Virus record (IMG/VR): IMGVR_UViG_2648501498_000007
DNA from: a virus
Lineage: Duplodnaviria; Heunggongvirae; Uroviricota; Caudoviricetes
Strand: one strand, 5' to 3'
DNA: 13,363 bases
Position numbers: made by a program. Positions 3,001 to 9,000 of this stretch are shown piece after piece. Each line of letters opens with the position of its first letter. Position 1 is the stretch's first letter.

Positions 3001-6000
3001 AAGTCAGGAAGATTTGGTGTGCGCACAGTGGATCTGGGGACGAATCGTGAGTCTTTACGAGCAGGCGGCCAGCGATGATGGCGAGATCACTAGACCGAAA
3101 GAACCCAACTGGACAGCATGGGCCAATGACGTTCGCACAATGCGGATGCTGGATGGCAGAACTCACAGACAAATTTGTGAAATGTTTGGGCGTCTCCAGC
3201 GGGATTCGTTCTGGGTAAAAAACATCATGAGTCCGGCAAAACTCCGGGAAAAATGGGATGAACTGGTTATCCGCCTGGGGCGTTCGCCTGCGCAGCGTTG
3301 CGTGAATCACATTTCTGAACCGGACACTGAAATACCGCCGGGATTCAGGGGGTGACGTGTCATGAAAAACATTGCGGCAGTTGGGGTTCTTGAACGTATT
3401 CGCAGACTTGCACCACAGGGGTCGGTTCCACCGTACCGGACGGTGGAGGAGTGGCGGGAATGGCAACTTGCTGAAGGACGAAAACGCAGCGAGGAGATTA
3501 ACCGCCAGAATCGCCAGTTGCGGGTGGAAAAAATCCTGAATCGTTCGGGCATCCAGCCTCTGCACAGCAAATGCTCGTTTGCAAATTATCAGGTGCAGAA
3601 CGACGGGCAAAAATACGCGCTGAGCCAGGCCAAATCCATAGCTGACGAACTGATGACCGGGTGCACGAATTTTGTGTTCAGCGGTAAAACCGGCACCGGG
3701 AAAAATCACCTTGCAGCGGCGATGGGCAACCGGCTGATGGTGAAGGGGCGCAGCGTGATTATCGTCACCGTGTCTGACGTCATGAGCGTGTTGCATGACA
3801 GCTACGACAACGGCAAATCCGGGGAAAAATTTTTACAGGAGCTTTGCGGGGTTGATTTGCTGGTCCTGGATGAAATAGGCGTTCAGCGGGAGACGAAAAA
3901 CGAGCAGGTGGTATTGCACCAGATAATTGATCGCCGGACAGCATCACTGTGCAGTGTCGGGATGTTAACAAACCTGAATCATGCCGCAATGAGTACGCTT
4001 CTTGGTGAGAGGATTATGGACCGCATGACCATGAACGGTGGTCGATGGGTGACGTTTAACTGGGATAGCTGGCGTCCAAATGTCAGCAATATGAGGGTTG
4101 TGAAGTAATTTTGTCCGGAGGAAATTTTAATGGAAACCGTATCTGATGCACTGAAAGCACTGAAAAAAGCCTCTTCACATGTGGTGGCAGCTCGCCTTGG
4201 AATCAGTCGTGAAGAGGCTGTCAACGAGCTGTGGGAACTCAAAAGAAATGGCGTCGTTGATAAAACTGGTCACACCTGGTTTCTGGCTGGCGAAGGTGAA
4301 TCCCGGGTAACCGAAGAGCGGCCAGTAAAATCTGAAGCACAGGATATGCTGACCGGGGAGGTCGAACAAAAAGTTACCGCAGACATGATGATTGAGTTTA
4401 TCGGTCAGGATGGGGCTAAAACGTGTGAGGAACTGGCGGGTAAGTTCGGTGTCAGTACTCGCAAGGTTGCTTCCACGCTGGCGGTGGTAACCGCAACGGG
4501 GCGGCTGGCACGCGTTAATCAGAACGGTAAATTTCGTTACTGCATGCCGGGCGATAATTTACCAGCAGAGCCGAAAGCCGCGCTGGTAACGGAAAGTGAT
4601 GGTAAGGCCTTTCCTCAGCCAGCAGGTGCTGCGTTACCAGGCCGGGAAGCCGCAACACAGGAAGAAATTAAAACAGAAACTGTGGCGGACATTGTGCAGT
4701 CGTTGCCATCGTTTACCGAAACGCAAGCAGATGAGCTGATTTTTCCGTCCCTGCGCAGGGCAAACCTGGCGCTGCGCAGGGCGAAAAGTGATGTTCAGAA
4801 GTGGGAGCGAGTCTGCGCCGCGCTGCGGGAGCTGAACAAGCACCGGGATATTGTTCGACAGATTACTGATTCTTCCCGCCGTGTTGTATCGGAAAAGTGA
4901 TTGCCGGAGGCGCTTATGGCAAAAGTATTTACACAAGAAGAGCGGGAAAAAATTAAAGGGCAGGTTGTTGAGCTAGTACGCCGGAGTGGGCGCGAGACGT
5001 TACGGCAACTGGAAGCCAAGACAGGTGCGACAAGATATCTGATGAGTGTTCTCGCCAGAGAGCTGGTTGCCAGTGGCGATGTATACAACTCTGGTTACGG
5101 GTTATTCCCGTCTGAACAGGCGCGTAAGGACTGGCAAAACGCCCGCAAAAAACTCTCAAGGGCAAATCTGAAGAAACCATCTGTGGTTGATCCTGACCTT
5201 ATCTGGCCATTACCAGACGGAGAAATACGCCGCTACGACAGGCGTCAAAACATAATCTGTAGCGAGTGCCGGAAGAGCGAAGCTATGCAGCGTGTACTGG
5301 CTTTCTATCAGGGTAATTTTCAGAAGGTGCTGTTGTGAGCCAAATTAACAATCGGAACTTCGTGAAGAGAAAGCATAATCCAAATCTGAATAATTAAGTT
5401 CAGCACTGTAAATAAAATTTAATCCTTAACTGGAGGTATATCTATGTCAAATACACAGAAAATTATTAACACTGAAAAATATAACGAGTGGGTGAAAAAA
5501 TTCTCTGAGCAGATTTTTAAAATTACTGGCGACGAGAATGTGGCAAAAAATGAATTGGAACCGTGGACACCTGAAGGAAACGCACCAAATTATTGCTGGT
5601 GGGAGGTTGATCCGGTTGATGCTGCAAATGAAGCCATGAGTTACCACAACGATTAATGTCGGGAGGCCGCCCGAAAGGGCGGTAAGAAATGACTACATTA
5701 TTCAGAAAAGAATATCCGCAAAAAAGTAGGGCGACAGAATTTTTGTTTCTCATTCTGTTTATCGTATTGATGATACCGATATCCCCTCTAATTTTTGTCT
5801 GGGCAATCGGGAAAATAATTGAGCCAGTTACTGAATTGTATAACGACGTGGTATGGGCGTCATTCAACACACTGCACAATAAAATTAATCCGTATAAGGA
5901 AAACTGATATGGCAACTTTGACAAAAAAAGAACGGGCATGGTTGAACGAATTACAGGAAGTTCTTGATCGCTGTCCATCACCGAAAAAAATTGGCTTTTA

Positions 6001-9000
6001 CACCATTGGCGATAAAAGCATTTACCTGTATGACCTACGCCGCATGGATGAAATCATGGAGGCTCTTGATAATCGTTCGTCGATGGATTGGTGTGTTGCT
6101 GTTCATGATATGAATGCAGGGTTTGATGAAAAGATTTTGTTCCCCTCATCAGTTGAAAGCACTGCGGGTTAAGGAGTAACACATGACCACTATTACCAAA
6201 GAACGTATTGAATTGTTCATTAAATTTTCAGGAGGCGGTACTGTGAGTGAAATTAGCTATCAGGCTTCAATTACCGCTGGCATTCGCATCAAAGGAGAGG
6301 AGCATGGAAATAAAACCAGAGGATGAGTTAAGCAATATCGTTTTATTTCCGGTAAAAGAGGATGACCCTCGTAATCAGGTTAATTTTCTTTATGAGCCAT
6401 CGGAAAGACCATATTGTCATCACGCCTCTGTCCGGGTTGACGAAAAAGAGCGTCAGGTCCGCTGTAAAATCTGCGGTGCAGTTGTGGAACCATTTGACTG
6501 GATGCTCTCTGTGGCGAAAAGAGAAACCAGACTGGCAGATGATGTAAGGCTCTTGCGTCAGGAGGAGCGGGAAAGGCGAAAAAATATAGAAAAGCTAATT
6601 CAGATTGAGCGTAACGCGAAAGCGCGGATACGCAGGGCGACAAAATCCAGAACTGAATAATTAAATTTAGCTCTGTTAAAAATTTAATCCTTAACCGGAG
6701 GGATTTCTGCACCCTCAGAACATCAGGAGGCCGCCCGAAAGGGCGGTAGTTAAATGCGAAAGTTTAAAATAATTATTGAAACGGGAATAGCCGGTGGAGA
6801 TTTCGAGGATGAATTCGAAGTGGATGATGATGCGACGCCTGATGAAATACATGACGAAGCAAAAGATATTTTCTTTAACTACTGCAATTACTCATATCAC
6901 GAAATAAAAGACGAAGAGGAAGAACAAAATGGCTGATTTTGGTTCAACTAAATACAACGTCGGTTTTGAAGAATGGCATGAACTGTTAATGGACTATGCA
7001 GAGTTACGTGGTGGCAGTGCTGCTGATGCTGAAGCATGGCGTGATGATTATGAAGCAGGAAAAACTCCGGTCGAAGCATATTGTGATGAGTGGGGCGATG
7101 AATGAGCGAGGTTAATTATCAGGAAGGGCATGAAACGGCGGGGCAAGCAAAAACAGTGGCATGGCGATATCGCTACGTGAAAAAAAGGCGTTACGGACTT
7201 TCAGGGGAAGTAGTGGTCTGGTGACTGGAAATATGTACCGAAAAAAGAGGATTGTAACGACAGGCCGAACTATGAAATTCAGGCCTTATTCACTGCCCCG
7301 CCAGTCCCGGTTACATCAGAAGAACTGGTTAAAGCTGTGCACTTTTATGAACAACTAAAATGCGAAAATCCACCAGCATCCGGAAACCTGATTACAGATT
7401 CCCAGATAAGGCAATGAGCTACCTGGCGCAGAACGGGCTGATAAGTATGGGGAATGTTTTACGATGAATATTTAGACTAAAGAGTTTGTAACGCTATGTA
7501 AGTGATTTTTTCTGGTTTAGATATTTATATGTCCGGCTAAATTGAGGTGTGTTTAAATGTTATTGCACATTGATTGTAGGGGGAATAATGAAAAACGCAT
7601 TGCAGTTTTTGTTTGTTGCGTTCTGGTTGTTCGCATCATGTATGCCCATCATCTTCACAGCAAGGTATATGGAAAAAGTTGATGTTTTGATATTAATGTT
7701 TGGACATATAAATGCCCTTTTTTTAGGGGTGTTCATGGCGGTCATGTGCATTGAATACTGGCGGTAAATACAGCGAACGCCATTGGTTTAGTTGGATATT
7801 TACTGTGCCGGACAAAAACGGTTTGCGGGGAAATCTTAGTTAAGTAGAATGACTGCGGGTGCTTGAGGCTATCTGTCTCAGGCATGAACACCAAAAGGCA
7901 GATAGAGAAAAGCCCCAGTTAACATTACGCGTCCTGCAAGACGCTTAACATTAATCTGAGGCCATATCTATGCGACACATAGAGATTAGCCTCTTACGGA
8001 CCGAAAGGTCAAGGAGAAGCAGGCTATGAAGCAGCAAAAGGCGATGTTAATCGCCCTGATCGTCATCTGTTTAACCGTCATAGTGACGGCACTGGTAACG
8101 AGGAAAGACCTCTGCGAGGTACGAATCCGAACCGGCCAGACGGAGGTCGCTGTCTTCACAGCTTACGAACCTGAGGAGTAAGAGACCAGGCGAGGGGGAA
8201 ATCCCTCGCCACCTCTGATGAGTCAGGCATCCTCAACGCACCCGCACTTAACCCGCTTCGGCGGGTTTTGTTTTTTCCTGGCATTCTGGTTTACAATTCG
8301 CACGTCAGCCTGAACACCTGACACCTGCTGCGCCAGTAGAGAAAACAGATGGCGCACAAAACCAAATTTCACAATTCTGATACCGACCTTGCCATCCGGC
8401 ATGGGCGGCGTTCACACGCATTTAAAACCGACTGGTACCAACACCCACCATGTACTGAAGAACAGGCCGAATGGCTAATTCATAACTACCGCAGACGCGG
8501 ATACGAGATTAAGAAAGCCCTCAGCCTCGATTATCGTCACTGGATAATCTATGTCAGGCTCCCTTATTCCGAACGCCCACCGCGTCCGTCCCGCACATTC
8601 CAGCAACGCATCTGGAGGTAACGTGCGGGTATTACTTCGACCTGTTCCGGTACCGGAACTTGGGCTGGTGGTGCTAAAACCGGGCCGTGAATCCATGCAG
8701 GTATTTCATAACCCTCGAGTTCTGGTGGAGCCGGAACCGAAAAGCATGCGCGGTCTGCCGTCCGGAGTCGTTCCTGCTGTTCGCCAGCCGCTGGCGGAGG
8801 ATAAATCATTACTGCCATTTTTCAGCGATGAGCGGGTGATTCGTGCTGCTGGTGGTGCTGGTGCATTGTCTGACTGGCTGTTACGCCACATTAAATCCTG
8901 CCAGTGGCCTCATGGTGACTACCATCACAGTGAAACCGTCATACATCGTTACGGTACCGGCGCGATGGTGTTGTGCTGGCACTGCGACAACCAGCTGCGT

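Follow-up and report, generated by a model that had tools for sequence, protein, structure and literature searches.

Here, we describe a short sequence unit in which a hairpin lies between a Shine-Dalgarno (SD) sequence and the start codon of the following gene, and which occurs twice in the IMG/VR virus record IMGVR_UViG_2648501498_000007 (Duplodnaviria; Heunggongvirae; Uroviricota; Caudoviricetes). The whole stretch of DNA that was analyzed, with a length of 13,363 nucleotides (nt), is referred to as the window. It corresponds to the early-right arm of a Rac-like lambdoid prophage and contains a repressor/cro-like pair, an O-like gene with iterons, ydaV- and ydaW-like genes and lygF; 3' of lygF lie small accessory genes, followed by hok/sok, ydfU, Q and two transfer RNA (tRNA) genes. 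The local order around the unit is a remnant of an E-like gene with a short linker, gene A, core copy 1, genes B, C, D and E, a long leader, core copy 2 and gene F.

Exact matches to the 23-mer GGAGGCCGCCCGAAAGGGCGGTA lie on the + strand at 5662-5684 and 6726-6748, which agrees with the initial annotation, where an identical 23-bp core had been placed before two open reading frames (ORFs). A search of the whole window with up to three mismatches allowed gave no third copy, and none of 200 shuffled sequences contained a match (0/200). The repeat around both 23-mers extends over 26 nt (5659-5684 vs 6723-6748), of which 25 are identical, with the consensus TC[G/A]GGAGG-CCGCCC-GAAA-GGGCGG-TA. Its parts, together with the spacers and start codons that follow, are given below.

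5659-5684, + strand: core copy 1, beginning TCG-GGAGG, with the SD at 5662-5666, the 5' arm CCGCCC at 5667-5672 and the loop GAAA at 5673-5676
Core copy 1, 3' half, + strand: 3' arm GGGCGG at 5677-5682 and TA at 5683-5684
5683-5691, + strand: spacer and start of gene B, with the A/U-rich TAAGAA, an in-frame TAA at 5683-5685 and ATG at 5689-5691
6723-6748, + strand: core copy 2, beginning TCA-GGAGG, with the SD at 6726-6730, the 5' arm at 6731-6736 and the loop GAAA at 6737-6740
Core copy 2, 3' half, + strand: 3' arm at 6741-6746 and TA at 6747-6748
6747-6756, + strand: spacer and start of gene F, with TAGTTAA, an in-frame TAA at 6751-6753 and ATG at 6754-6756

The SD-to-ATG distance is 22 nt (5667-5688) before ATG 5689 and 23 nt (6731-6753) before ATG 6754, and the spacer that remains after the stem is 6 nt in copy 1 (TAAGAA) and 7 nt in copy 2 (TAGTTAA). 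The core hairpin has a folding energy of -15.5 kcal/mol, and the probability that its stem is unpaired is 0.00 in native contexts of 160-190 nt. Coordinates and folding thus support the layout first proposed for both sites, i.e. an SD, a 16-nt hairpin and a further 6-7 nt to the ATG. RNAfold adds a seventh pair, a G.U between the last G of GGAGG and the U after the stem; support for it was inconsistent, and it was rejected as part of the element. A weak AAGGG near the start is buried within the 3' arm of the hairpin. The initial annotation also described a GNRA hairpin, which is correct for the window, where both copies carry GAAA, and does not extend to the unit in general: the loop is not conserved and reads GGCA or UAAA elsewhere.

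The genes that flank the two cores directly are the following.

5444-5656, + strand: gene A, 70 amino acids (aa), phrog_4659; the core has two kinds of left flank, one of them being the 3' end of this gene
5689-5907, + strand: gene B, 72 aa, DUF4014/phrog_1832, with one hydrophobic helix
6754-6936, + strand: gene F, 60 aa, DUF7167/phrog_1997

An in-frame TAA lies between the hairpin and each ATG, so neither ORF can begin upstream, and proteins B and F match their family profiles starting at residue 1. Judging by these upstream in-frame stops and full-length profile matches, ATG 5689 and ATG 6754 are the true starts. The ratio of nonsynonymous to synonymous polymorphism (pN/pS) behind the hairpin is 0.25 for B and 0.11 for F, which indicates purifying selection and argues that the genes are translated. 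When compared, proteins B and F show no relationship to each other, and the earlier statement that the two downstream genes are unrelated is borne out. Translational coupling of the ATGA/TAAATG kind, with an upstream ORF that reads across the hairpin and stops at the ATG, was considered and rejected: the leader has no ATG, GTG or TTG, and the stop/start overlap is not retained in the other right-flank families.

The relation between the stem and the start codon is regular across 82 distinct gene-bearing contexts. The start lies 6 (25 contexts), 7 (28), 8 (6) or 9 (17) nt after the stem in 76 of them, and in these 76 no other SD is present in the spacer (TAAGAA, TAGTTAA, TAATGAAAA etc.). The remaining six contexts belong to one family, in which the start lies 11 nt after the stem and a separate GGAG immediately follows the stem. 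Of the 82 gene-bearing contexts, 81 retain the GGAG core, which is broken (GTAGG, GGAAG) in two of the three types of junction that lack a start codon. Among IMG/VR sequences, wherever the exact 16-mer hairpin lies in a lambdoid context, AGGAG(G/A/T) abuts its 5' side. In start regions of the split-SD type, the SD is about 22-27 nt from the start codon, which exceeds the range of normal initiation, and folding of the intervening hairpin leaves an effective spacing of about 5-11 nt. The unit therefore combines every sequence-level feature of this type, namely a distance of 22-23 nt, a stable hairpin wholly in between and no nearby SD, and we infer from these sequences that the hairpin makes the distant SD usable.

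Gene B offers a natural comparison. Alleles that are 92-97% identical to it also occur without the hairpin in other mosaic settings, where AAAGGAG and 6 nt precede an ATG or GTG at the same codon. This 6-nt spacing is the effective spacing that the folded unit would present. Because gene B is also found behind an ordinary SD, the hairpin belongs to the linker and is not a requirement of the gene.

The textbook split ribosome-binding sites are those of single genes of T-even phages. Read directly, the start region of T4 gene 38 consists of UAAGGAG, the hairpin AGGGGC-UUCG-GCCCUU, CUAAAU and AUG, with 22 nt from SD to AUG and a folding energy of -16.7 kcal/mol. Here as in the present unit, nothing separates the SD from the hairpin, which is 16 nt long and consists of a 6-bp G+C-rich stem capped by a stable tetraloop; six A/U-rich nt and the AUG follow. 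The unit between genes A and B further shares with it the 22-nt linear distance, the intercistronic position just past the upstream stop and a similar energy (-16.7 vs -15.5 kcal/mol). A comparable structured spacer in T4 had been proposed from the outset, and the geometry of gene 38 matches nearly base for base. The sequences are unrelated, the loop being UUCG in T4 and GAAA in the present unit, and whereas the T4 element is a single copy at one gene, the present unit is repeated before at least eight families and is a site of mosaic exchange. According to a review, the structure in T4 genes 38 and 25 brings the SD to a functional distance, and destabilizing mutations reduce initiation (PMC3014915).

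The unit is widespread. The search of other lambdoid genomes that the initial annotation called for showed that it is not a private duplication of this virus: the 75-mer formed by the leader and hairpin is present in 2377 of 5426 complete E. coli genomes (44%), at 3167 places and up to seven per genome, all of them unannotated and intergenic. It is also found in 19 phage records, including ArgO145, several Stx2a phages, mEp460 and Rac-SA53. The unit is absent from the K-12 Rac prophage, where the region after ydaW is deleted, and the Salmonella P22-like phage VSe13 shares gene C without having the unit. A 16-base leader pattern, GATTYCTGCACCCTCA, was too short for a contig collection of 596 Gb, in which 119 of the 120 listed matches were due to chance and only L217 was genuine.

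Left flanks of the core are of two kinds, the long leader or the 3' end of gene A, and the core is usually preceded by a conserved leader of ~65 nt with a second hairpin. Right flanks comprise at least eight unrelated gene families, in addition to junctions without a gene; the N-termini of the encoded proteins include MRKFKIIIE, MTTLFRKEYP/MKHYLEKNYP, MQDIKENIRQ, MTELTKEQLI, MAELTKEWLQ, MEITKERLLE and MLTLKHFIDIP. The spacers of these different families are alike (TA[A/G]T[G/A]AA..ATG), which means that the shared unit extends to the start codon. The start pattern of gene F has the hairpin upstream in all 72 copies examined (72/72). The search for loci related to F returned only 100%-identical proteins, and thus no diverged upstream regions came from that search. 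In Escherichia phage Rac (MN652886; L297 2501-2707), the start codon of F is ATA, not ATG, and the annotated coding sequence begins upstream at 2525 within the leader and reads through the SD and hairpin; this F is likely a pseudogene or a misannotation due to the unusual start region.

Sequence variation was assessed in 122 copies drawn via the left flank, an unbiased sample, and pairing was analyzed on 30 distinct sequences. The stem variants C4U, C6U, C4U+C6U, C2U, C5U and C14U are all compatible with G.U pairing on the sense strand, a few copies have a disruption at the top of the stem (C6A, C6A+G12A, G11U), and the loop varies to GGCA and UAAA. Of all cells in the 30 distinct sequences, 97.8% are paired; 16 one-sided changes convert G-C to G.U and four leave the position unpaired. 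C-to-T changes are seen at five of six stem C positions and G-to-A changes at one of six stem G positions, as against 4:4 in the adjacent leader. On the antisense strand, the same stem changes would give A-C mismatches. The asymmetry in the stem, set against the balance in the leader, favors a role for the stem in the sense-strand RNA, although few independent events underlie it. Every natural variant still folds, at -6.4 to -15.5 kcal/mol.

In 35 haplotypes with the leader, hairpin and gene F, the pairwise difference per site is 0.0095 for the 3' arm, 0.054 for the 5' arm, 0.038 for the leader and 0.140 for the loop, compared with 0.134 at third codon positions of F, which serve as a neutral proxy. 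The stem and leader are therefore conserved relative to this proxy and the loop is not, so that GNRA identity is not required.

Tolerance of G.U pairs on the sense strand suits any RNA-level role, including one in which the hairpin is mainly an mRNA stability or processing element and its adjacency to the SD is incidental. It would then shield the upstream cistron from 3' exonucleases, or give 5' protection after RNase E cleavage in the A/U-rich leader, and translation would begin by other means (the A/U-rich spacer, S1 or transient melting). In favor of this are the high stability of the hairpin together with its lack of a U-tract, its location 10 nt past the stop of gene A and downstream of the long A/U-rich leader, and the intercistronic tetraloop hairpins that T4 has at the same position. 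We regard this explanation as unlikely: left unaccounted for are the start codon, always 6-9 nt past the stem unless there is a second SD, the AGGAG that abuts the stem with 0 nt in between, and the decay of the SD in two of the three gene-less junctions.

The initial annotation suggested a mobile cassette. What stands of this is the presence of the core before at least eight families and the reassortment of its flanks; nothing points to autonomous mobility, and the core is 'mobile' only as recombination at a conserved linker. The remaining features involved in this exchange are listed below.

5374-5443, + strand: short linker before gene A, consisting of the 3' end of a deleted E-like gene and the conserved leader AAAATTTAATCCTTAACTGGAGG
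5909-6172, + strand: gene C
6183-6326, + strand: gene D
6304-6660, + strand: gene E
6661-6722, + strand: long conserved leader, containing AAAATTTAATCCTTAACCGGAGG, which it has in common with the short linker

The window has core junctions of the types A-hairpin-B and leader-hairpin-F, and phage ArgO145 has A-hairpin-F and leader-hairpin-B. As all four flank combinations occur, the unit is a recombination joint. Both left flanks are found among the fetched loci with F, with B, with the MTELTK/VTELTK family and with gene-less junctions. In ~340 related loci, which were chosen for carrying the unit, the ends of BLAST segments cluster at the linkers and both cores, with 41 starts at 5650-5659 and 94 ends at 6740-6759. 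The 1064-bp segment between the core copies consists of B, C, D, E and the long leader; the same 1064-nt core-to-core spacing is present in four contigs (L020, L048, L095 and L110), and A-hairpin-F is the arrangement expected without this segment. It is close to certain that the core is a conserved, reassorting cassette, and we infer that recombination at the core, not selection after random joining, generates the mosaics. In ArgO145 (L001 3253-3838), an HNH endonuclease gene directly follows B in place of gene C.

Three contexts have unrelated DNA joined exactly at the 3' base of the stem, without the TA and without a start codon.

L015 9388-9970: gene-less junction
L107 12039-12621: gene-less junction
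L006 2029-2792: gene-less junction

Two of these junctions carry a convergent pair of genes on the reverse strand (184 aa with 97 or 300 aa), and one a 228-aa gene on the + strand with its own leader, which looks queH-like judging by its N-terminus. The exactness of these unrelated joins (two convergent gene pairs and the queH-like gene), the reassortment of flanks at the core and the lack of covariation in the stem all fit the notion that the unit matters only as a DNA recombination hotspot or homology patch, with a functionless RNA and boundaries kept by selection on the proteins. A palindrome of this kind should, however, gain C-to-T and G-to-A changes equally, whereas the stem has sites in a ratio of ~5:1 for sense-strand G.U against 4:4 in the flanks; in addition, the unit has a single orientation relative to the downstream gene, and its distance from the ATG stays within narrow limits. 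This makes a purely DNA-level function very unlikely in our view.

Three independent joins at the stem 3' base, together with the joins at the ATG in eight families, can also be cited for a stronger version, in which the SD-hairpin core would be a dedicated 'expression socket'. The hairpin itself would direct breakage or strand switching, bracketed segments (5659-6748) would excise and insert as units, an incoming ORF would get a split ribosome-binding site, and the core would perhaps have come from a P2-family terminase gene. This likens the bracketed segments to integron cassettes or to the mini-circles of promoter-early stem-loop (PeSL) elements; we consider it decidedly unlikely.

PeSL cassettes are repeated between small accessory genes in the T4-type phages RB49 and phi1, and their copies recombine, inserting, deleting or swapping genes, with the crossover in or beside the stem-loop (PMC2839356). 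Like the present unit, they are short, conserved regulatory elements with a G+C stem-loop that recur among such genes. Their sigma-70 promoter and working terminator have no counterpart in the present unit, which carries a ribosome-binding site instead; a consensus scan of 5200-7200 shows no promoter-like or terminator-like site at the units and no PeSL-style promoter in the leader. A more general precedent is the linker model of Botstein and Susskind, by which short conserved intergenic boundary sequences may target homologous exchange (PMC3233612; PMC2839356). Such linkers and the present unit alike are conserved sequence at module boundaries, here with four flank combinations and breakpoints at the core. 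While the classical idea names no structure, the present linker is a defined SD-hairpin-spacer unit that ends at the start codon.

Bringing these observations together, and with slightly better than even confidence, we read the unit as a split ribosome-binding site that is portable and at the same time acts as a linker in mosaic exchange. In the sense mRNA, its 6-bp G+C stem would fold essentially always and loop out 16 nt, leaving AGGAGG effectively 6-9 nt from the AUG. The 30S subunit would then bind the SD with the AUG placed in the P site, as has been shown experimentally for T4 gene 38. The identical unit, usually with its leader of ~65 nt, would also provide a short homology patch where lambdoid prophages swap small accessory genes, and a gene joined at its ATG would inherit a working start site. 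The two cores of the window would bracket one such exchangeable segment (B-C-D-E-leader). The explanations based on RNA stability, on a DNA patch and on damping of translation, which is discussed below, could coexist with this account.

Several observations weigh against this explanation. Since gene B also works in settings that lack the hairpin, the element may contribute nothing to translation. Within the SD, the last G is able to pair with the U after the stem, and the SD as a whole has an unpaired probability of only 0.35-0.57 in its native context. Compensatory double changes number zero in the 30 distinct sequences, and shuffles equal the observed pairing, so that there is no covariation; the RNA-level argument rests on a small G.U asymmetry, of roughly 5-8 events vs 1. 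When the window and 1.9 Mb of lambdoid loci were screened for further SD-hairpin-ATG modules, only the present hairpin family recurred: all copies are of one sequence family, with no second independent hairpin of such a layout. Their conservation could partly reflect recent spread and homogenization. The sample from which it was measured is partly conditioned on the sequences compared, and recombination can homogenize copies, hence we treat the conservation as supportive and not decisive. Finally, stable hairpins placed anywhere from the SD into the coding region were strongly inhibitory in E. coli reporters (PMC3592434).

The reporter result would also fit a hairpin that serves as a translational damper or coupling device, keeping small and possibly toxic accessory proteins low. 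With the SD pushed 22 nt off and the weak AAGGG buried, expression would need melting by ribosomes or helicases. Protein B is indeed small and hydrophobic, the 3' arm is the most conserved part of the hairpin, and in the A-hairpin-B arrangement a ribosome terminating at 5654-5656 would reach the SD and the 5' arm. A distance of ~65 nt to the upstream stop in most copies, however, excludes coupling as a general mechanism. The hairpins that were inhibitory in reporters sequestered the SD or AUG themselves, unlike the present one, and the identical geometry of T4 gene 38 enhances initiation relative to an unfolded spacer (PMC3014915). We give the damper a small chance of being the correct explanation.

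Should the hairpin indeed bridge SD and AUG, the unit would represent the first natural split ribosome-binding site that is widespread and serves many genes, and with 44% of complete E. coli genomes carrying the unit, the proposal is readily testable in a standard host. It would also provide a concrete, sequence-defined case of the long-debated 'linker' model of phage mosaicism, in which early-left and early-right operons trade a short conserved unit that extends to the start codon and ensures expression of the arriving gene. Gene callers and models of ribosome-binding sites that use the linear SD-AUG distance will score such starts as lacking an SD. We found no literature report of the lambdoid SD-hairpin unit, its 16-mer or DUF4014.

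We also considered whether the unit is another known RNA signal, i.e. an intrinsic terminator, a lambda-type nut boxB or an RNase III site. There are superficial grounds for this: a GAAA loop on a G+C stem looks boxB-like, GCTCTGTTAAAAA at 6670-6682 in the long leader is faintly boxA-like (GCTCTTTAACAA / lambda nutL CGCTCTTAAAAATTAA), and the 16-mer followed by a T run is a common terminator in unrelated phages. Intrinsic terminators in unrelated phage contigs share the 16-mer stem-loop CCGCCCGAAAGGGCGG; there it is followed by the T run, whereas the lambdoid unit continues with TAA/TAG and a start codon. The tails of the two copies in the window, TAAGAAATGAC and TAGTTAAATGCG, have no U-tract and a consensus scan for Rho-independent terminators lists neither, in line with the initial view that they are not intrinsic terminators. 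A boxB has a 5-bp stem with a GNRA-like pentaloop and follows a conserved boxA, whereas the present loop is a tetraloop that can also read GGCA or UAAA. Conservation is lacking for the boxA-like GCTCTGTTAAAAA, with relatives reading GCACTGTTAAAAA (GCACTG), and nothing resembling boxA is present in the gene A left flank. RNase III would need a stem much longer than 6 bp. Rfam 15 has no family at the hairpins (nothing nearby at E < 4), the only matches in the window that reach a family's gathering score being sok and the two tRNAs. An identity with any of these signals is extremely improbable.

A further likeness is to a coding sequence. The 24 nt TCAGGAGG+CCGCCCGAAAGGGCGG occur within a coding sequence, near the 5' end of the terminase small-subunit (gpM) gene of a P2-family element, at L053 11453-11476 (IMG/VR 3300009036_000333), where they read Q-E-A-A-R-K-G-G. 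The P2-like Klebsiella phage ST13-OXA48phi12.1 (L461, NC_049453) has CAGGATGCCGCCCGGCAGGGCGG at the equivalent place, with a GGCA loop that is also found in some lambdoid copies. A blastn comparison of the gpM site with lambdoid cassettes gives 32 nt at 94-97% identity, and similarity between the lambdoid leader and P2-family gpM is not significant beyond ~32 nt. The P2-family gpM site could be the origin of the lambdoid core, or the likeness could be due to chance.

The linkers themselves are related to each other. The short linker at 5374-5443 recurs in direct orientation at 6641-6708, in the first part of the long leader, with matches of 81% and 90%. Gene A has an ordinary start, with the SD GGAGG at 5432-5436, 7 nt and ATG 5444. 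Upstream of it, 5315-5395 is the remnant of an internally deleted D/E gene pair, with its start similar to 6223-6261 (77%) and its end to 6641-6682 (81%). The linker also follows this remnant, so the E 3' end and linker are duplicated within the window (5315-5443 vs 6223-6708).

In the long leader, a vestigial SD, GAGGG at 6698-6702, can pair with CCCTC at 6712-6716 and has no start codon after it. This second, weaker leader hairpin (6697-6716) would sequester the vestigial SD left from a start site of the short-linker type. The same CCCTC could alternatively pair with the functional SD at 6726-6730. In the relative L084, the leader has GAGTG...CACTC, a shifted yet perfect stem.

Elsewhere in the window, the sok antitoxin RNA (Rfam RF01794, 106.7 bits) is found at 7857-8028, as part of a hok/sok type I toxin-antitoxin locus downstream of the small-gene cluster. 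Genes for tRNA-Met (CAT) and tRNA-Arg (TCT) lie at 12274-12349 and 12447-12523, near the end of the Q/late region, and resemble the arrangement in Stx-type lambdoid phages. An iteron array at 2719-2815, inside the O-like replication gene, has four ~15-nt repeats of the TGACCCGT type and an inverted copy, and is presumed to be the replication origin.

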